This document shows positions 54 through 9,685 of a DNA stretch of 20,000 bases, piece by piece. The stretch comes from an uncultured virus (IMG/VR IMGVR_UViG_3300009605_000022) (Duplodnaviria > Heunggongvirae > Uroviricota > Caudoviricetes). The notes below the pieces were generated by a model. It made no database searches. It was not told where the DNA came from and was given only the letters and a program-made list of their open reading frames with translations. The translations under genes were made by a program, and so were the position numbers. Each line of letters begins with the position of its first letter. The stretch's first letter is position 1. The stretch lies in IMG/VR virus record IMGVR_UViG_3300009605_000022; one strand, written 5' to 3'.

Positions 54-103
54 ATACCAAGGACACCACCCTATATAAAGCTTTTTTCACCCGAGTGGAA
101 AAA
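54..103 (-). promoter_or_regulatory. Type-B archaeal promoter (TTTATATA box 79-72, TTGGTAT initiator-like element) plus upstream palindrome TTTTTTCAC-CCGA-GTGGAAAAA
   Basis: Repeated at 798-846 and 1594-1641; the TATA box lies 22-29 nt upstream of the ATG with an A-rich BRE-like flank. Confidence 0.8.
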
Positions 104-154
104 TAAAAAATGCAACTTCACCTGAGGCTCCGCGTGTTTAAGAAACACCTCAGG
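101..154 (-). terminator. Hairpin CCTGAGG/CCTCAGG with inner GTGTTT/AAACAC, followed by a U-rich tract on the minus strand
   Basis: Inverted repeats 121-127/148-154 and 134-139/143-148; TTTTTTATTTTT downstream on the minus strand. Confidence 0.6.
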
Positions 155-540
155 GAGCGGTTGCCCGAGAGCACATTAATCTGCATAGGTAGTGCTACAC
201 GTGGGGTGTGACCTGTCGCCAGTCAAAAGGATATCCTTCACGAAAGGCGAACACAAGCATGAACAGGTGTGATACTCATAGCTTAACGGATTGATTCTAT
301 AACAGGGATAAAGTGATTCAAAGGTGATACATAATGTTAGCTACACGTCGTTCTAAAACTTAGATGCGCATCGACCGGAAAGGGATTGGGTCAGCACTGT
401 TCAGCTAGTATTTGTTATGTGAATGTCTCGTTGTTGCGTATGGTTCGATTTTGTTTCCTTGTCAGGTCACGTGTTACAGCTGATAACTGTAAGTGAGCGG
501 GTGCAATACTATTTTGCTATTTTCATCTCCCCGCTCTGTA
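110..540 (-). ncRNA. Candidate large structured ncRNA 1 (~430 nt)
   Basis: Sits directly behind the type-A promoter (541-569) with no credible ORF. Stems: 495-501/530-536, 474-479/487-492, long-range 208-215/463-470, 216-220/246-250, 227-238, 363-372, 170-174/192-196, and a terminal hairpin plus U tract. Confidence 0.65.
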
Positions 541-569
541 TTACCAATAGAGTGTCTCTATATAAGCTT
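541..569 (-). promoter_or_regulatory. Type-A archaeal promoter repeat (AAGCTTATATAG-AGACACTCTA-TTGGTAA on the minus strand)
   Basis: 29-bp repeat, 27/29 identical to the copies at 1420-1448 and 2170-2198; contains the dyad ATAGAG-TGT-CTCTAT. Confidence 0.8.
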
Positions 570-794
570 TTCTCCCATGGACTTTATCTCACTGACATAC
601 ACGTCACCGAGTTCAAAAGAACCATAAGTAAAATCTGATTTGACAGCGCAGAACCAACGGGCGTGTGGGTTCTTCGCTTCATTCTCAGCGTTTTGGTATT
701 TCTTTAATACTCTCCATTCAAAGCCACGTGGGCCAGTCCAGACCTCGTAAGGGTCATCTGTTTTGCGGGTTTTACCGCACATGTTTTTAGTCAT
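558..794 (-). CDS. Leaderless 78-aa hypothetical viral protein
   Basis: ATG 3 nt after TTGGTAT of a type-B promoter; protein-like composition (WRVLKKYQ...ARWFCAVKS...ELGDVY); stop lies inside the next TATA box. Confidence 0.85.
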   Translation of the reverse strand: MTKNMCGKTRKTDDPYEVWTGPRGFEWRVLKKYQNAENEAKNPHARWFCAVKSDFTYGSFELGDVYVSEIKSMGEKLI

Positions 795-797
795 ACA

Positions 798-846
798 ATA
801 CCAAGGGTGGGGGTCTATATAAAGCTTTTTTCACACGAGTGGAAAA
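798..846 (-). promoter_or_regulatory. Type-B promoter plus palindrome TTTTTTCAC-ACGA-GTGGAAAA
   Basis: ATACCAA 798-804, TATATAAA 816-823, palindrome 826-846. Confidence 0.8.
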
Positions 847-884
847 CCTCGAGGCGGGGGCAAAGGCCATAGCCCCCTAGAGGT
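846..884 (-). terminator. GC-rich hairpin ending the 1402-896 operon
   Basis: ACCTC/GAGGT (846-850/880-884) and GGGGGC/GCCCCC (856-861/872-877), followed by TTTT on the minus strand. Confidence 0.55.
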
Positions 885-895
885 GTCAAAACTGC

Positions 896-976
896 TTACG
901 AAATACGTCTGGCCTTTTTGATAATCTTATTCGTTCTCTTCTTCCAACCTCGTTCTAAGTAGGTATCGTAGCTCAT
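896..976 (-). CDS. 26-aa basic microprotein MSYDTYLERGWKKRTNKIIKKARRIS
   Basis: Hand-translated; ATGA overlap with the upstream ORF stop. Confidence 0.55.
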   Translation of the reverse strand: MSYDTYLERGWKKRTNKIIKKARRIS

Positions 977-1089
977 AAGCCACACCCACAGCAAGGTGCA
1001 TCTTCACACCCGCAGAGGACAATATAGTCTCCTGCTTCACTTATACCAGAGATGACCATGTCATCTAAAATATCTAAGATGCTCTTCAT
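973..1089 (-). CDS. 38-aa Cys-rich microprotein ending CGCEDAPCCGCGL
   Basis: Hand-translated; ATGA overlaps at both ends; metal-binding-like Cys cluster. Confidence 0.7.
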   Translation of the reverse strand: MKSILDILDDMVISGISEAGDYIVLCGCEDAPCCGCGL

Positions 1090-1223
1090 TTGGTCAACCC
1101 CAGCTTGATTGCTTTTAGTTGGTCCAATACTCCGGAATCAATTTTATTCTTTTGTATGGTTCTGCGTGCTACTCTCCTGAAGCGGAAAGCGTTTCTGGTG
1201 TCTTGTATTGTTTGTTCTAACAT
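1086..1223 (-). CDS. 45-aa basic microprotein MLEQTIQDTRNAFRFRRVARR...
   Basis: Hand-translated; AGGAG Shine-Dalgarno upstream; ATGA coupling downstream. Confidence 0.65.
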   Translation of the reverse strand: MLEQTIQDTRNAFRFRRVARRTIQKNKIDSGVLDQLKAIKLGLTK

Positions 1224-1237
1224 GTTTATCTCCTATC

Positions 1238-1402
1238 TTACCATACTCCACAGGCTATATAAAACCTTTCATCATCGAACCGTGGGTTCTCTGCTTCATA
1301 CTTTTTTGCGAAGTCTTTTGCTACCTGCATCTTTACCGATGCCGGCCATCCTGTTGTCCTTATTAGGTCTGCTGTTGCTTGAAAATCTTTTCTTGTGTTC
1401 AT
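1238..1402 (-). CDS. 54-aa viral protein MNTRKDF...NPRFDDERFYIACGVW
   Basis: Start moved to 1402 (GAGGA SD, downstream of a type-A promoter); the TRKDF...NPRFD..RF..AC pattern resembles small phage early proteins (from memory, not searched). Confidence 0.8.
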   Translation of the reverse strand: MNTRKDFQATADLIRTTGWPASVKMQVAKDFAKKYEAENPRFDDERFYIACGVW

Positions 1403-1419
1403 ATTTATTTCCTCGTATA

Positions 1420-1448
1420 TTACCAATAGGGTGTCCCTATATAAGCTT
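1420..1448 (-). promoter_or_regulatory. Type-A promoter repeat
   Basis: TTACCAATAGGGTGTCCCTATATAAGCTT, identical to 2170-2198. Confidence 0.8.
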
Positions 1449-1590
1449 ACCGGTGCCTCCACTTTCTCATTCTCACCAGCATACTTTGAGTTTGTAAACT
1501 CCTGCTGTAGAACTCTTCGAATTCCATTTTACCACCATATGATTTATAGTGATGCCAATTTGCTAACCTTTGTGTTTCGTATTTAGTCAT
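1447..1590 (-). CDS. Leaderless 47-aa protein MTKYETQRLANWHHYKSYGG...
   Basis: ATG 3 nt after TTGGTAT; the stop TAA overlaps the AAGCTT of the next promoter. Confidence 0.7.
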   Translation of the reverse strand: MTKYETQRLANWHHYKSYGGKMEFEEFYSRSLQTQSMLVRMRKWRHR

Positions 1591-1593
1591 AGT

Positions 1594-1641
1594 ATACCAA
1601 CGGGTGTGTCTATATAAAGCTTTTTTCACACGTGTGGAAAA
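1594..1641 (-). promoter_or_regulatory. Type-B promoter plus palindrome TTTTTTCAC-ACGT-GTGGAAAA
   Basis: ATACCAA 1594-1600, TATATAAA 1611-1618, palindrome 1621-1641. Confidence 0.8.
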
Positions 1642-1644
1642 GCT

Positions 1645-1980
1645 GGCGCCCCGCCGACTTAAAAGAAGCCGGTTATGGGGGTAACCTGCGTTTAGCTGTC
1701 CTACCATTATAGGCTGGCTTACTAAACTGAAGATGCGTCGCTACGTTTAACGCTCGGGCGGACTTATGCCTAAGGCCCTTCGCCATCACTTGTCAGGCGT
1801 CTCCTATTGTCCACGATGCTGGACAGTTTATTAGACTGACTCATACACTTGCCCTTTCCGTTGGGGGAACCTACTCCTTCGGCCTCCTTCTTACAGTGTT
1901 CGTGGACTCACGGAACATAATCTCTTTTGGGCTGAGTGTAATACTATTTTACTATTTTCATCGTCTCAGCCCGTTAGAGG
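1645..1980 (-). ncRNA. Candidate structured ncRNA 2 (~335 nt)
   Basis: GC-richer with no credible ORF. Stems: 1929-1936/1965-1972 (domain shared with ncRNA 1), 1897-1917, 1808-1825, 1757-1760/1781-1784, 1723-1729/1824-1830, and terminal hairpin 1649-1680 with a G-U pair on the minus strand. Confidence 0.6.
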
Positions 1981-1988
1981 TGCGTGGT

Positions 1989-2057
1989 TTATAATTTTCT
2001 TGTTGCGTATGATATTCCTACTAACCATGTTAGTAAGCTACTTTGGTATGTGTTCAT
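1989..2057 (-). CDS. 22-aa micro-ORF MNTYQSSLLTWLVGISYATRKL
   Basis: AGGAGG SD; TAATG overlap with the upstream stop. Confidence 0.45.
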   Translation of the reverse strand: MNTYQSSLLTWLVGISYATRKL

Positions 2058-2155
2058 TAGTCGCCTCCTTTTCTTATTAAGTATTGATAGTGAAATGGTC
2101 TACCGTTTTTCTTAAAGTCTTTTGCTAGCTTTGCCCAGTGTTGTCTTCGTGTCAT
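2057..2155 (-). CDS. 32-aa basic microprotein MTRRQHWAKLAKDFKKNGRPFHYQYLIRKGGD
   Basis: Start moved to 2155 (GAGGA SD, downstream of a type-A promoter). Confidence 0.65.
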   Translation of the reverse strand: MTRRQHWAKLAKDFKKNGRPFHYQYLIRKGGD

Positions 2156-2169
2156 GTTTTTCCTCTGTA

Positions 2170-2198
2170 TTACCAATAGGGTGTCCCTATATAAGCTT
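2170..2198 (-). promoter_or_regulatory. Type-A promoter repeat
   Basis: Identical to 1420-1448. Confidence 0.8.
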
Positions 2199-3266: not shown

Positions 3267-3581
3267 TTAGGCCCTCCTGTGCCCAGTGTTTGCCATACCT
3301 TGACATTCTGGCTCAGAGCCATATTGTCGGTAGTGTTCAGCAACCAAAGAAGCTTCATGTTCTAAAGCTTCCCATGGGTTTGAAAATTCTTTCAATACTA
3401 TCATGGATACATCATGACCTTTTTTAGGCCTGTGTTTACTAAGTCTTGACTGGGGGTCTTGAGTTAGTCCGTAATAGATTGCATCCTTATCTATTCCTTG
3501 TGTATAATCGACGTCAAAGAAGTGATAACTTGTCTTTTCTGTCTGTCTGGCTAGTTTGTATATATAGTAGTTGTTGTTCAT
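3267..3581 (-). CDS. GIY-YIG family nuclease-like protein
   Basis: YYIYKL...IYYGLTQDPQSRLSKH...EALEHE matches the GIY...YIG.T...R..H...E pattern. Confidence 0.7.
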   Translation of the reverse strand: MNNNYYIYKLARQTEKTSYHFFDVDYTQGIDKDAIYYGLTQDPQSRLSKHRPKKGHDVSMIVLKEFSNPWEALEHEASLVAEHYRQYGSEPECQGMANTGHRRA

Positions 3582-4599: not shown

Positions 4600-5675
4600 T
4601 GGAGCTTAATATGATTGAGATAAAACATTTAATGAAAGACTCTTTAGTGCCTTTGGCTTTAGAGAGAGGAGGAACTGTAAAGCCTCTTATAATACCAGCA
4701 GCCGAGACCGGTGGGTTAGGATTATGCAACCCGTCGATATACCACGTACCTAAGACATCTAAGTACTTGATTAATGTGCGTAATGTATCTTATTACTTAC
4801 ACCACTGTGAAGGAGACCAGAAGTACCAAACACCATGGGGTCCTTTGAATTATGTAAGACCAGATAACGATGCATACCTAAGAACTAAGAATTTTATATG
4901 CGATTATAATTTAGGACAGGGTAAGATAACCAAGCATAAACTATTAGATACATCTAAATTTAAGAAAGAACCTGAGTGGGACTTTGTAGGATTAGAGGAT
5001 GGACGTATAGTGGAGTGGGAAGGTAAAACATATTTAACCGGCGTTAGGCGCTACGCGCCTGATGGCAAAGGAAGGATGGTGCTGTCTGAAATTGAGATTA
5101 CTAAAAAAGGAGTCAAGGAAGTTGGTCGATATGTGATGGACTCTCCTAATGGTCCTGAAGAATACTGTGAGAAGAACTGGATGCCTATCTTAGATATGCC
5201 ATTCCATTATGTTCATACAGCTAACCCACTTAAGATTGTCAAAGTAGATATAAATGAAAAGTGGAAACATAACCCAATAAAGTATAGGTGTCCTGTTAAC
5301 GTAGTACACGAAGGTAAAGAAGAGATACCTCTACAGTTAGACCCTCGTGGCAGTTCACAACTTGTACCATGGAAGGATGGTTATCTATGTGTAACACATG
5401 AATGTGACTACTGGCATAATGAGAAAAATGACAGAGACGCACATTACTATCACAGGTTTATATACTGGGACAAAGAATGGAACCTAAAAGGATATTCACA
5501 ACCGTACAAGTTTATGGATGGTAGAATAGAATTCTGTTGTGGTATGGCAGGTCACCCTGATGCACAGTGTGATGACATGCTTATAACATATGGCTTCCAA
5601 GATAATTCTGCTTATGTACTACACATAAAAGAAGACCATATACTAGAGTTATTGGAGCATTCAAATAAGGAATGA
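4599..5675 (+). CDS. GH130/GH43-like five-bladed beta-propeller glycosidase or phosphorylase
   Basis: NPSI, GLEDGR, EKNWMP, RGSS, IEFCCG, ITYGFQD motifs. Confidence 0.75.
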   Translation: MELNMIEIKHLMKDSLVPLALERGGTVKPLIIPAAETGGLGLCNPSIYHVPKTSKYLINVRNVSYYLHHCEGDQKYQTPWGPLNYVRPDNDAYLRTKNFICDYNLGQGKITKHKLLDTSKFKKEPEWDFVGLEDGRIVEWEGKTYLTGVRRYAPDGKGRMVLSEIEITKKGVKEVGRYVMDSPNGPEEYCEKNWMPILDMPFHYVHTANPLKIVKVDINEKWKHNPIKYRCPVNVVHEGKEEIPLQLDPRGSSQLVPWKDGYLCVTHECDYWHNEKNDRDAHYYHRFIYWDKEWNLKGYSQPYKFMDGRIEFCCGMAGHPDAQCDDMLITYGFQDNSAYVLHIKEDHILELLEHSNKE

Positions 5676-7297
5676 ACAATTACTGGAAAACCACAGCGTG
5701 GCCTACGCTAGAGATAACAACCTCAATTCCTAAAGCAGGATGCGTAGTTGATTGTGTCTTTTGTCCACAACGAGTCTTACAGAAAGTATGGGATGCTGAG
5801 AAGTTCACTACTAACGCAGCTAGAACTATGAAGCTCGAGGACTTCAAGATGGTAATAGATAAATTACCTAAAGAAGTGAGGATTACTTTCTCAGGGTTCA
5901 CCGAACCTTGGTTAAATAAAAATACTACTGACATGTTGTTATATGCACATGAGCAGGGACATAGGGTATCCGTATTTACTACAGCAGTAGGTATGCAACT
6001 CAAAGACGTTGAAAGAATAAAAGACATTCCATTCTGTGGTGGACCTAATGGTGGGTTTACTTTACACTTACCTGATACAGAAAGGTTAGCCAAACATCCA
6101 GTAAATAAGAAGTACATTAAAGTAGTTCAAGCACTTAAAGACGCCAATATCAATAATTTTCAAACGATGTCTATGGGCATGGTTCATGAAGAGGTGGTAG
6201 ATATTTATCCAGACGAAGAAGTCAATAAATATGAAATGTGGCACAGAGCAGGTAACCTATTAGGTGAAGCTCAACTTAAACCAGAAGTAAAAGAAGTATG
6301 GGATAGATTTAAATCAATAATGCATGAGGATGAAATGACATGTGGTTGTGTAGAAGATTTATATCATAATATCTTATTACCTAATGGTGAAGTATCTTTA
6401 TGTTGTATGGATTATAATTTAGAAGAGATACTTGGTAATTTATATACTGAAGAGTATGACGACATACTACCACCACCAAATACTACATATGATATGTGTA
6501 GCAGGTGTGAGAATGGTGTTCCACCTATGAAACTAAGTGGATGGGAAGAAGAGATAACAATAAACCCACAAGGAACATCACCAGAGAGTAATGCACCTAT
6601 TCTCGTCAAAGAAGAAACAATAGATAGATTAGATTATAACAATTACTTTGTTCCAGAAGCTATGGTACAATATTTAGATAATAATAAAGTTCCAGAGCAT
6701 GAAATAATAAACTGGGCTAAGAATAACTTCTGTCATAACGAAAAGACGTTTGTAGACATAGGAGCACATGTTGGTACATATACATGGACACTAGCACCGT
6801 TCTTTAGTAGTACAGTTAGTTTCGAACCTACTAAGTCAACATATAATTATTTATGTGGAAACGTAATGCTTAAGAACCTGTCAAAGAAAGTTACAACTCA
6901 TAACGTAGCTTTAGGTGCAGAAGAAACTACCATGATGTTTTACGAAAGAAGTAAAGATGGTGGTACTAATGGATTGAACTTAGATTACAACAATGGTAAA
7001 TGGTTAGGTAATGACCAAGACCACTACGAAGTAAAAGTAAATAGATTAGATGATTATAAACTAATGAATGTAGGATTTATAAAAATAGATGTAGAAGGCT
7101 ATGAGCTTGCAGTATTAAAAGGAGCAACCACAACATTACAGAACAATGGTTACCCTCCAATACTATTCGAAAGCTGGCCTGCTAACAATCCAGAGAATAC
7201 TTTATTGAAAGATAATTTATTTAATTACTTATTCGCATTAGGATACAAAATAGGAAGTACACCACACCCCGAGATATTTATAGCAAGGAAAGATTAA
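5672..7297 (+). CDS. Radical SAM/SPASM-like domain fused to an FkbM-family methyltransferase
   Basis: CVVDCVFC, SGFTEP, VSLCCMDY..LGN..CSRC; then FVDIGAHVG, FEP, IKIDVEGYELAVLKGA. Confidence 0.85.
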   Translation: MNNYWKTTAWPTLEITTSIPKAGCVVDCVFCPQRVLQKVWDAEKFTTNAARTMKLEDFKMVIDKLPKEVRITFSGFTEPWLNKNTTDMLLYAHEQGHRVSVFTTAVGMQLKDVERIKDIPFCGGPNGGFTLHLPDTERLAKHPVNKKYIKVVQALKDANINNFQTMSMGMVHEEVVDIYPDEEVNKYEMWHRAGNLLGEAQLKPEVKEVWDRFKSIMHEDEMTCGCVEDLYHNILLPNGEVSLCCMDYNLEEILGNLYTEEYDDILPPPNTTYDMCSRCENGVPPMKLSGWEEEITINPQGTSPESNAPILVKEETIDRLDYNNYFVPEAMVQYLDNNKVPEHEIINWAKNNFCHNEKTFVDIGAHVGTYTWTLAPFFSSTVSFEPTKSTYNYLCGNVMLKNLSKKVTTHNVALGAEETTMMFYERSKDGGTNGLNLDYNNGKWLGNDQDHYEVKVNRLDDYKLMNVGFIKIDVEGYELAVLKGATTTLQNNGYPPILFESWPANNPENTLLKDNLFNYLFALGYKIGSTPHPEIFIARKD

Positions 7298-7961: not shown

Positions 7962-8711
7962 ATGTTAGATGAGCTAGAAGATGTAGGTTGGATATCCGAA
8001 GAAGACTTCAAAGAGATGAAGAGTCTCGGTATAGAAACCCCTAAAGAGTATTTTAAATATAAAGATAATATAACCACTAGAGATGTAGAAGATATATTAT
8101 TAGAATCAGTAAAACATGTTACAGTTAAAGAAGGCTCATTACCTACATTGATTGTTATCGACGATTTCTTTAACGACCCTGATTCAGTAAGAGACTTTGC
8201 TATGACTAGAGACTTTGTACCACGTGGAGAACATGGTGCAGTAGGGCACAGAACTTTAGTTCACCATCATTTTGATGGAGTAAGAGAACACTTTGAAAAA
8301 GTACTTGGTTCTAAGATATTAGATGGAAAAGACATAGGTGGTTGGGATTACCAACCTAATGGTACATTCCAACACTGTATGGCAGAAGACCCTTTTGTTA
8401 TTCATGCAGATGACCAACAATGGGCAGCTATGGTATATCTAACACCTGACGCACCACCAGAGTGTGGAACTTCTATGTATAGACATAAAGAGTCAGGAAT
8501 GGATGCAATACGTAAAAAGGAGTGGCACATATTTAAAGAAAACTTTTATGATGCAACACCCTTTGAGTTAGTAGATAAGATAGGAAACAAATACAATCGT
8601 TGTGTGATTATGGATGCTAAACTAATACACGCAGCTTCACAATACTTTGGCGACAATATAAAAAATGATAGATTATTTCAAATATACTTTTTTGATACGG
8701 AGAACAAATAA
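7962..8711 (+). CDS. 2OG-Fe(II) oxygenase-like protein (DUF6445-like)
   Basis: IVIDDFFNDPD, HAD (HxD), AMVYLTP..GT, NKYNR, distal H in IHAA, RLFQ. Confidence 0.75.
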   Translation: MLDELEDVGWISEEDFKEMKSLGIETPKEYFKYKDNITTRDVEDILLESVKHVTVKEGSLPTLIVIDDFFNDPDSVRDFAMTRDFVPRGEHGAVGHRTLVHHHFDGVREHFEKVLGSKILDGKDIGGWDYQPNGTFQHCMAEDPFVIHADDQQWAAMVYLTPDAPPECGTSMYRHKESGMDAIRKKEWHIFKENFYDATPFELVDKIGNKYNRCVIMDAKLIHAASQYFGDNIKNDRLFQIYFFDTENK

Positions 8712-9685
8712 TGACAGAAACTAAATGGACAGCGAGTCACATGAGGCTCAGCCCAAGTAAGATTAATACTTACATGAAATGCCCCCGAGAGTTCTACTAT
8801 AACTATATAGCTAAACTCCCACAAAAGAAAACAATACATTTGTTCAGAGGAACATTAGTACACAAAGTCTTAGAAGAACTTTTTAAGCAACAATTTAAAA
8901 CTTTACCACAATGGGAGAAAGGAGAACCTAAGGTATGGGTACAAGAACAATTCGAAAAAGGATGGGAAGAAAAGATAGCTAAACACAAATGGTTATGGGA
9001 CGTACACACTGATTTAGAAATGGATGCTATGTATAAAGAGACAGAAGCACTATTACAAAACTTTGTAGACTCTGTAGATAAGAAACTAACAGAAATGGTT
9101 GAATGGAAGATATTCCGTAATAAACAACAAGCATGGAATGCAGTAGCACCTAAGTATGCTGAGAAGTGGGTTAAGTCTCACGAGTATGCAATCGTAGGAG
9201 TTATAGATGTTGTATGTAATGATTTCGATGGTGGCACTACACTACTTGATTATAAGACATCAAAAAGATATGGACCATACCTACCAGAAGAATATTACAG
9301 GCAGTTAATTATTTATGCCTTTTTATATACGTTAGAGATGGGAGAGATGCCTAACTTTGTAGGTGTTAACTATCTTCGTTTTGATGATACATTCTTTGTT
9401 AAGGTAGGACAAAAGGAACTTGATGAAGCTAAAGACTTAATTAAGATGGTACACGATTGTATCAAAGAACGTCAAGAGTATGAAGACAGATATGAACAGA
9501 AACCACAGAACTTATGTAAGTGGTGTTCTTTCCATAAATCTCAAGGTGGACCCTGTGATGCTGAAGTTCCAAAATGGGAACCAAAGTTCAAAAAACGTAA
9601 AAAAGAAAATTATGCAGATATATCAAAAGATTCTAAATTGAACATAGAATTAGAAAATCAGGACCAGTTTCCAGACTACGACTAA
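8711..9685 (+). CDS. PD-(D/E)XK nuclease, Cas4/RecB(AddB)-like, with four Fe-S cysteines
   Basis: SPS...CPR, GTLVH, GVID...DYKT, QLIIY, CKWC...C. Confidence 0.85.
   Translation: MTETKWTASHMRLSPSKINTYMKCPREFYYNYIAKLPQKKTIHLFRGTLVHKVLEELFKQQFKTLPQWEKGEPKVWVQEQFEKGWEEKIAKHKWLWDVHTDLEMDAMYKETEALLQNFVDSVDKKLTEMVEWKIFRNKQQAWNAVAPKYAEKWVKSHEYAIVGVIDVVCNDFDGGTTLLDYKTSKRYGPYLPEEYYRQLIIYAFLYTLEMGEMPNFVGVNYLRFDDTFFVKVGQKELDEAKDLIKMVHDCIKERQEYEDRYEQKPQNLCKWCSFHKSQGGPCDAEVPKWEPKFKKRKKENYADISKDSKLNIELENQDQFPDYD

Follow-up and report, generated by a model that had tools for sequence, protein, structure and literature searches.

We describe here a short structured RNA element, referred to as the module, that is found twice in the genome of an uncultured virus of the Caudoviricetes (IMG/VR record IMGVR_UViG_3300009605_000022). 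The stretch of this record that we analyzed, 20,000 nucleotides (nt) long, is called the window, and all positions are counted from its first letter. Both copies lie on the minus strand, each on the 5′ side of a long structured non-coding RNA (ncRNA), and we give RNA sequences in the minus-strand sense. An earlier note, made from the letters of the window alone, had described two stems of unrelated sequence but perfect pairing, each enclosing 28 nt of which 24 are identical. Reading the sequence bears out both the layout and the counts. The only changes in the 26-nt core are the two compensatory ones that the note had singled out, C12/G24 in one copy and U12/A24 in the other.

495–536, minus strand: module copy 1, GAGCGGG (536-530), GA, GAUGAAAAUAGCAAAAUAGUAUUGCA (527-502), CCCGCUC (501-495)
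Parts of copy 1, minus strand: outer helix 536-530/501-495; spacer GA 529-528; core 527-502; inner helix G517-A514 with U505-C503; apical loop 513-507
1929–1972, minus strand: module copy 2, GGGCUGAG (1972-1965), AC, GAUGAAAAUAGUAAAAUAGUAUUACA (1962-1937), CUCAGCCC (1936-1929), with the U12/A24 form of the core

The core consists of a 12-nt internal loop on the 5′ side (AA-GAUGAAAAUA), an inner helix of 4 base pairs (bp) (GYAA/UURC), a 7-nt apical loop (AAUAGUA), and one unpaired A. The outer helix that closes it is 5–10 bp long, free in sequence and fixed in polarity: its 5′ strand is rich in purines and its 3′ strand in pyrimidines.

A degenerate form of the 26-mer has 2 matches in the window, versus none in 200 shuffles that preserve dinucleotides. 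With a covariance model trained on 17 instances of the element, copy 1 scores 67.5 bits and copy 2 scores 69.6 bits, while the next-best site in the window scores 10.2 bits. The folding z-scores are −3.8 for copy 1 and −5.0 for copy 2. Thermodynamic folding treats the A/U-rich core ambiguously: for copy 1 a GAUG/UAUU pairing is favoured over the GCAA/UUGC helix that covariation backs.

Covariation and structural variants

Is this structure conserved beyond the two copies in the window? An exact-core scan of IMG/VR contigs returned 27 stretches, and a metagenome scan that allowed any nucleotide at core positions 12, 19, and 24 returned at least 124. Combined, the scans give at least 105 unique module instances of 126 nt from viral and marine metagenome contigs, and the counts that follow are out of the instances listed. 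Five viral genomes of 56–70 kb have 1–2 strong copies each.

We observe at least 35 distinct outer stems among the instances listed, and pairing is always kept. Positions 12 and 24 are C/G in 70 of the 105 listed and U/A in the other 35, and no other combination occurs though all were permitted. Both forms are seen on identical outer stems (GGAUAGG, GGUUAGG, and several three-way-junction stems), and the switch has therefore arisen repeatedly. Position 19 is G in 99 of the 105 listed and A in 6.

The simple hairpin architecture accounts for 80 of the 105 listed. An alignment of 17 simple instances (8-bp outer helix, 12-nt loop, 4-bp helix, 7-nt loop, and 1 nt) has 93% of its cells paired, and 7 of the 8 outer pairs change on both sides. 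Its covariation is 0.557 versus 0.175 in shuffles, none of 500 shuffles reaches that score, and registers slid along the alignment give 0.18 at most. A three-way-junction form, found in 15 of the 105 listed, has a further hairpin inserted ahead of the core, past the 5′ strand of the outer helix, in the layout P1-GAAC-P2-GACCUAAAAR-core-A-P1′. The alignment of 14 of these 15 has 98% of cells paired and 12 of 19 pairs changing on both sides, and again 0 of 500 shuffles reach the score. Other extended stems make up the remaining 10; in one clade of related loci (that of L150), part of the extended 3′ strand resembles a second promoter. The covariation in the simple and the three-way-junction sets, and that at positions 12 and 24 over at least 105 instances, supports the conserved RNA structural module that the earlier note had proposed, and the comparison of sequences shows a self-contained structured RNA read in the minus-strand (GAUGA) sense.

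It is important to bear in mind that the instances were fetched by their core pattern, so that the invariance of the core comes partly from selection. Three more scans each freed part of the core (positions 1–4, 6–10, or 15–21). They yielded one further true variant, G19A with apical loop AAUAAUA, in loci L098 and L113; the remaining new matches are without a stem and look like chance. Given these scans, and given the contrast with stems that have fully diverged, we argue that the invariance is probably real. The stems keep their polarity as well: purines make up 79% of the 5′ strand of the outer helix, and the three core-adjacent pairs are purine-pyrimidine in 33, 35, and 31 of 35 distinct stems.

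The loop also spells the 5-codon frame described in the earlier note (AUG AAA AUA GCA/GUA AAA UAG). Could the module be a translated mini-gene? The purine-rich 5′ strand would then serve as a Shine-Dalgarno sequence, the loop would encode MKIAK or MKIVK, and what matters would be the ribosome, or a drop-off of peptidyl-tRNA as with the lambda bar minigenes. All 105 instances listed keep the AUG and the in-frame stop, the sole loop variant (G19A, 6 of 105) changes UAG to UAA, the polarity of the stems suits a Shine-Dalgarno role, and copy 1 reads AGAGCGGGGAGAUG where a neighbouring gene has AGAGGAAAAACAUG. But the fetching pattern itself fixes most of the frame, and the third codon positions A7, A10, and A16 never varied when freed, which argues for a constraint on nucleotides and not on codons. 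The change from Ala to Val is always compensated at position 24. Moreover, in the 25 variants of the three-way-junction and other kinds, the AUG is preceded by …CCUAAAAA or …AAUCGGC and no tract resembling a Shine-Dalgarno sequence is present, and the spacing from G-run to AUG is only 2–4 nt. We regard a mini-gene as highly improbable.

Comparison with known RNA families

When the window is compared with Rfam 15 at E-values up to 10, neither copy has a match; the strong hit to a known family that, by the earlier note, would have refuted novelty is not found. Searches of short stretches with lax filters report only C/D snoRNA look-alikes (24.1 and 16.7 bits versus gathering scores of 45 and 47), and across 33 related loci, three-way-junction and other variants included, no Rfam family matches the module.

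The look-alikes, which are plant C/D snoRNA models, reflect a terminal stem followed by GAUGA, as in box C/D small RNAs and kink-turns. The module differs in that its 3′ strand reads CA and not GA by the stem, and in that just 28 nt are enclosed. As for the C box (RUGAUGA), the bases before GAUGA are AA in 82, AG in 7, GA in 7, GC in 7, and AC in 2 of the 105 listed, and a U is never found at position 2. As for the D box (CUGA), the core ends in UUGCA or UUACA in all 105. A kink-turn has a three-nt bulge and tandem G.A/A.G pairs; judged by sequence, the module has a 2-nt spacer and CA on the non-bulged strand. We thus reject both assignments. A tRNA-like element is also rejected: ARAGORN reports 0 genes in the window, the Rfam tRNA model matches true tRNA-Glu genes only, the outer helix varies from 5 to 10 bp, and the AAUAGUA loop is without a T-loop consensus. 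In a comparison with the selenocysteine insertion sequence (SECIS), the internal loop shows GAA in its 5′ strand and a lone A in its 3′ strand; the Rfam SECIS models are unmatched and many instances follow no gene, though genes with an in-frame UGA were not searched for.

Sequence databases give a similar picture. The exact core is absent from 185,579 prokaryote species genomes, and a BLAST search of 50,697 phage records with the 52-nt module gave no match, though its low-complexity filter could mask one. Regarding the virus itself, its large terminase subunit (TerL) has no relative in those species genomes, the nearest deposited phage TerL is 22–24% identical, and neither the major capsid protein nor the 4.1-kb RNA region has a match in the phage records. 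The protein atlas gives 'Viruses' only. The nearest related record (G001), possibly a fragment, is without the core.

A 2023 survey of IMG/VR (PMC10690425) lists 8,495 candidate structured RNAs, short covarying intergenic motifs among them. Its searchable tables contain neither the core sequence nor six of our contig names, and the motif may be present, unnamed, in its alignments. Literature searches on the letters of the core and on archaeal-virus ncRNAs found, in the parts of the literature that they cover, no description of the element. Altogether, the module is a strong candidate for a new RNA family.

Promoters and transcription

Upstream of the two copies lie the following features.

541–569, minus strand: promoter-like site of archaeal type, AAGCTTATATAG-N10-TTGGTAA, with predicted transcription start
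2170–2198, minus strand: promoter-like site of the unit small open reading frame (ORF), small ORF, module, ncRNA 2
2057–2155, minus strand: 32-aa basic ORF, MTRRQHWAKLAKDFKKNGRPFHYQYLIRKGGD, first gene of the unit of copy 2; synonymous changes in L002 and L012
1989–2057, minus strand: conserved 22-aa ORF, MNTYQSSLLTWLVGISYATRKL, ending 16 nt before copy 2

The earlier note had copy 1 starting a few nt past a TTGGTAA promoter element. This stands, with a promoter-like site at 541–569, and it applies to copy 1 alone: copy 2 follows the two small ORFs of a unit that starts from the promoter at 2170–2198. In relatives, serines of the 22-aa ORF are encoded now by AGY and now by UCN codons, so this ORF is coding.

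From the TATA octamer to the outer helix of copy 1 the distance is 23 nt, which places the helix at the predicted start of the transcript; in leaderless genes nearby, the ATG comes 21–22 nt after the octamer. In 8 architecturally different examples, counting on the sequence, the first paired base is 21–29 nt after it. Such spacing is shown by archaeal promoters, with a TFB recognition element (BRE) and TATA box, that make leaderless mRNAs. Similar sites (AAAGCTTTATATAG-N9/10-TTGGTAT) are repeated on the minus strand of the window, and the promoters of the window appear to be archaeal-type.

Within 300 nt of the 92 instances listed, promoter motifs number 100 in the sense and 17 in the antisense orientation, and for promoters 10–80 nt upstream the numbers are 22 versus 1. 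A TATA-like site lies 15–75 nt upstream in 24 of 100 listed. Module sequence is also found in RNA libraries, in a contig of metatranscriptome run X19 (445–788) and, from a relative, in record 7 of run X16. Given this sense bias and this presence in RNA libraries, the module is therefore made as RNA in the GAUGA sense.

Could the element act instead as DNA, as a cruciform or single-strand hairpin for replication, recombination, or protein binding? Its A/T-rich 28-bp core, with a direct heptamer repeat (AAAATAG twice), lies between G/C-rich inverted repeats. Wobble counts leave the strand undecided (G.U in 4 cells versus A.C in 2), and both strands fold about equally well in silico. However, the orientation strictly follows the direction of transcription, the polarity of the stem strands is conserved, the three-way-junction variant and the C12/G24 pair indicate folding within one single strand, and the sequence is present in RNA libraries. 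We give a DNA-level element almost no credence.

A portable module between RNA units

The features downstream of the two copies are the following.

474–492, minus strand: second small hairpin of leader 1, UUACAG-UUAUCAG-CUGUAA; UUAUGG/CCAUAA in relatives, with 2 pairs changed on both sides
165–473, minus strand: ncRNA 1 body of about 310 nt, closing helix GUGACCUG (470-463) with CAGGUCAC near 213-206
105–164, minus strand: 3′ trailer of ncRNA 1, hairpin GCAACCGCUCCCUGAGG...CCUCAGGUGAAGUUGC, then a T-run (110-97)
1642–1928, minus strand: ncRNA 2 segment, with a linker of about 20 nt, a small hairpin at 1920-1908, and a structured body of about 260 nt
1907–1900, minus strand: closing helix of ncRNA 2, GUCCACGA paired with UCGUGGAC

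Both long non-coding segments of the earlier note prove to be real structured ncRNAs. An alignment of 6 sequences for ncRNA 1 has 84 predicted pairs, 25 of them with compensatory change, and for ncRNA 2, with 7 sequences, the numbers are 67 and 25. The two bodies differ from each other, and an Rfam search reports no match for either. The module folds apart from the bodies, and neither alignment has any pairing between module and body; L001 has an additional linker hairpin.

The earlier note had read the module as the integral 5′ domain of one family of mature ncRNAs, working within them. In agreement with this, both ncRNAs of the window have the module on their 5′ side, bodies of the 'block A/B' type come after it in about 35 of the 92 listed instances, and contigs of X16 and X19 span the module into the body. 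On the other hand, the same module is found before RNA bodies of at least four unrelated kinds, and elsewhere before a tRNA, protein-coding ORFs, a terminator, or the promoter that follows, as well as after manA RNAs, so that a single family defined by the module is not borne out. In addition to the lack of module-to-body pairing, we find no conserved complementarity to the downstream sequence, and, as weak evidence, RNA contigs of three studies end at 472/473, downstream of the module. An integral domain is therefore decidedly unlikely.

The surroundings of the module in relatives are diverse. The 22-aa ORF lies upstream in about 27 of the 92 listed instances, and another RNA body does so in L014 and L018. 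No ATG-initiated ORF of at least 40 aa starts within 150 nt downstream in 59 of 74 listed; downstream ORFs with a Shine-Dalgarno site occur in L004, L022, and the class of L150, a terminator in L207 and L202, and a promoter in L191, L257, and L005. A tRNA-Glu(UUC) with encoded CCA is found in the same arrays, 17 nt after the module in L014. The order module, body, tRNA of L003 and L008 is permuted to body, module, tRNA in L014.

The manA RNA (RF01745), a motif described by Weinberg et al. (2010; PMC2864571), has homologs in six of these loci: L024:1309-1489, L008:1270-1455, L009:1569-1752, L026:1534-1716, L005:1311-1488, and L014:2620-2796. Five of the six are arranged head-to-tail with the module, in viruses with archaeal-type promoters. 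The Rfam matches, of 63.9 bits in L024 and 55.5 bits in L008, stop exactly at the module, as do those of L009, L026, and L005, which are below the gathering score at E-values of 1e-9 to 1e-10. The manA RNAs end at L024:1489 and L008:1455 and the modules begin at about 1491 and 1456, so the two are adjacent and do not overlap. Like the module, manA is an orphan structured RNA of marine viruses; it differs in being about 190 nt long versus about 45 nt, and the two have no structure in common. Membership of the module in manA is rejected, given that the manA model does not cover the module and that the window has no manA match. A preprint reports that manA RNAs form cage structures (bioRxiv 10.64898/2026.07.01.735769).

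In sum, the sequences depict a portable module, placed at predicted transcript starts and in spacers after small ORFs or manA RNAs, and mostly before long untranslated structured RNAs.

Some recurrent sequences accompany the module. A CYTTAY motif lies 5–16 nt past the core in 42 of 100 listed instances versus 10.6% of control windows. At some loci the motif coincides with the BRE/TATA of the promoter that follows, and after copy 1 it forms the 5′ arm of the second hairpin; AACCUUAUUA is found 3–8 nt before tRNA-Glu in L003, L008, and L014. We rejected the second hairpin as a general feature: a hairpin of at least 5 bp follows in 59 of 96 listed versus 45% of control windows.

The portability of the module raises another possibility, a free-standing small RNA, in which the 45–85-nt hairpin, its two ends joined by the outer helix, would itself be the product, released from longer transcripts or made from its own promoter, and would act in trans through its invariant loops, either as a decoy for a conserved RNA or protein of the host or as a guide to one. 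Some loci are nearly stand-alone. L207 consists of a promoter, the module, a GC hairpin with a U-run, and the next promoter; L191 and L257 of promoter, module, and next promoter; and L202 of promoter, module, and a run of five Ts. The permuted orders described above, together with body, module, terminator in L018, also fit a free RNA, as do the 1–2 strong copies per genome, and the invariance of the 26 nt suits a conserved target. Against this, about nine tenths of the listed instances have neither terminator nor promoter directly behind. In 23 instances we looked for stretches complementary to the core, over 300 nt on the upstream and 450 nt on the downstream side, and no cis partner recurs; nor is one known in trans. 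The U-runs right after the modules of L009 and L026 can pair with AUGAAAAUAG, in only those two. The absence of the core from the prokaryote genomes argues against letter-for-letter mimicry of a host gene. Finally, such a short RNA would be missed by standard RNA-seq libraries. On balance, we consider a free small RNA rather unlikely, and the main rival of the reading that we favour below.

Metatranscriptome contigs

We compared assembled contigs from four metatranscriptome runs (X15, X16, X17, and X19). On ncRNA 1 the contigs are 207–472, 323–473, 409–473, 164–248, and 166–314. In X15, X16, and X17, which come from three studies, contigs cover 164–473 and stop at 472/473, about 22 nt downstream of copy 1. 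This stop falls right after the second hairpin of the leader and 3 nt before the closing helix of the body; on the other side the contigs stop at 164–167, just before the trailer hairpin. Word depth in X17 is up to 138 per bin on ncRNA 1, while most neighbouring genes have no cover. In X17 the contig continues at 472/473 into sequencing-adapter letters, and many fragments therefore end at one base; X15 and X16 have no loose end there. For ncRNA 2 there is one X17 contig (1741–1904), and we give its end at 1904 no weight because it lies inside a predicted helix. These data give a weak hint that mature ncRNA 1 might extend from about 473 to 165, without the module. The absence of contig cover over 474–540 (X15–X17) and 1905–1980 (X17) is not counted as evidence, since contigs cannot show absence.

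A possible RNA end so close to the module brings up a new class of small self-cleaving ribozyme, one that would cut polycistronic RNA at its own site or nearby. The module shows a pattern typical of such ribozymes, with nucleotides that never change in junction and loops, stems that covary freely, and placement between RNA units, and the possible RNA end lies 22 nt downstream. Yet that putative end is outside the module, past the second hairpin, and there are contigs that span the module uncut. The core is an A/U-rich loop, and the simple form has no evident pseudoknot or second helix junction. The known self-cleaving ribozymes (hammerhead, twister, pistol, hatchet, and HDV-like) are rejected, with no match to the Rfam ribozyme families at E-values up to 10. 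A self-cleaving module is improbable.

A possible leader or spacer tag

What, then, might the module do? Our best reading, still a tentative one, is that it is a leader or spacer tag, the invariant loops of which dock a conserved factor that acts on the precursor RNA, for processing or for processivity. The invariance of the core (26–28 nt) over fully diverged stems, together with the fixed polarity of the stems, leads us to infer a single conserved partner that reads the loops. This trans-acting partner could be a host or viral protein, or a ribonucleoprotein, and its action on the nascent or precursor transcript would take one of two forms. It may cut the units of an RNA operon apart, as punctuation. 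Alternatively, it may keep the polymerase going through long untranslated RNA, like the bacterial nut, put, and rrn-leader elements. The module would then be parted from the mature ncRNA. We favour a cis-acting tag on the precursor because it fits the placement at transcript starts, at points where translation ends, and in the spaces between RNAs, and also the hint of a module-free mature RNA.

Lambda nut/boxB with the N protein, HK022 put, and the boxB-boxA-boxC of rrn operons are antitermination elements of leaders and spacers. The likeness of the module to them is one of placement only: a short hairpin with a conserved loop, after a promoter and in a spacer, before a long untranslated RNA, possibly removed from the mature RNA, and with a small basic ORF (TRRQHWAKLAK...) upstream of copy 2. 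The module differs in that its promoters are archaeal-type and in that no boxA-like element was found; neither N-like binding nor override of terminators is part of the likeness.

Small folded units that separate the RNAs of one precursor are also known from tRNA punctuation and tRNA-like processing, as in mitochondrial tRNAs, the mascRNA of MALAT1, and the tRNA-miRNA units of gammaherpesviruses. The arrays of the relatives even include a real tRNA-Glu, whereas the module is not tRNA-like by ARAGORN or Rfam, the length of its outer helix is variable, and it has no T-loop consensus.

Several observations weigh against a leader or spacer tag. In 11 of 100 listed instances the module has a promoter on its upstream side and, no more than about 110 nt behind it, another promoter or a T-run, and in L207, L191, L202, and L257 the module is almost the whole unit, which suits a free small RNA better. 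In L018, L014, L024, and L025 it comes after an RNA body and before a terminator or promoter, and is therefore not always a leader. A run of five Ts lies within about 40 nt after the module in 10 of the 92 listed instances and behind neither window copy; an anti-termination target right behind the module is therefore not general, and by the same count we reject the module as an intrinsic terminator. The X19 contig 445–788 and the X16 record 7 run uninterrupted through a module, so that uncut RNA or contaminating DNA must exist. Assembled contigs cannot reliably show ends, strand, or level, and DNA contamination is possible. Both the partner and the cleavage are things that we infer, and the archaeal nature of the promoters, and with it the putative host domain, is read from sequence.

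One can extend the idea of a leader or spacer tag further. The module could be the recognition element of an undescribed system by which viruses with archaeal-type transcription build operons of structured RNAs (manA cages, ncRNAs of 250–310 nt, and tRNA-Glu). It would be bound by the polymerase or would recruit a nuclease, possibly cleaving itself, and would both allow read-through of long untranslated RNA and mark the sites of cutting in the precursor, so that archaeal viruses would have a counterpart of nut/put and of tRNA punctuation combined in one 45-nt element. In this full form the proposal is unlikely.

The interpretation of the earlier note is thus partly supported. It was right in kind, in that this is a conserved RNA module unknown to Rfam, and too narrow, in that the module is a portable leader or spacer unit.

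Other features of the window and its relatives

A number of side observations concern the RNA bodies and their arrangement. A YUGACAAG-N-AUGGCGAAG hairpin and a CGCGGUUGGAAGCCCGUGGUUAGC block recur in the bodies of many relatives. Close relatives are set apart by entire ncRNA cassettes that are inserted behind the module (L007:1527-1720 versus L022 and L010), and the cassettes shuffle at a short conserved boundary, because each ends in the same AACCACCTTACATT junction. The 12-mer TTGTTGCGTATG is common to 431–442 and 2000–2011 (plus-strand coordinates): in the minus-strand sense, one occurrence forms the 3′ end of the 22-aa ORF that precedes copy 2, and the other lies within ncRNA 1, behind copy 1. 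A similar stretch follows the module of L113. The shared 12-mer looks like a trace of recombination between cassettes.

A near-palindromic 20-mer, TTTTCCACNCGNGTGAAAAA, has 4 copies in the window (83–102, 827–846, 1622–1641, and 2541–2560) versus 0 expected. Three of these copies immediately precede a BRE/TATA promoter and fall at the 3′ ends of ncRNA 1 and ncRNA 2. The 20-mer could serve as a terminator in both directions, as an operator, or as the two together. Moreover, the stop codons at 558–560 and 1447–1449 (minus strand) fall within the TATA box of the next promoter, so that gene and promoter overlap; they belong to the 78-aa ORF 794–558 (AAG CTT ATA TAG) and to the ORF that ends at 1447 (GG TAA GCTTATATAG).

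As for proteins, the conserved 32-aa basic protein (2057–2155, minus strand) has an arginine-rich start, MTRRQHWAKLAKDFKK, reminiscent of the peptides with which phage N proteins bind RNA. The neighbouring small proteins, this one included, match no Pfam or PHROG family that is informative. In the clade of L150, L186, L192, L212, L219, L223, and L257, the module is followed by the gene of a conserved 118-aa protein (…GRLPAGVKYD…KSGKLSLDELK), which matches no known family and is absent from the window. Elsewhere, the window encodes a radical-SAM/SPASM domain fused to an FkbM methyltransferase (5672–7297), a Cas4-like PD-(D/E)XK nuclease (8711–9685), and a small GIY-YIG-like protein just under the Pfam threshold (3267–3581).

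Outlook

The module is short enough for direct tests, and its candidacy as a new RNA family stands even if the mechanism stays open. If our reading of it as a leader or spacer tag is true, it would give us a handle on what adjoins the manA RNAs, which form cages and the biology of which is unknown, and on the factor that reads the tag. It would also give us a handle on how uncultured marine viruses with archaeal-type promoters make and mature their abundant structured ncRNAs.

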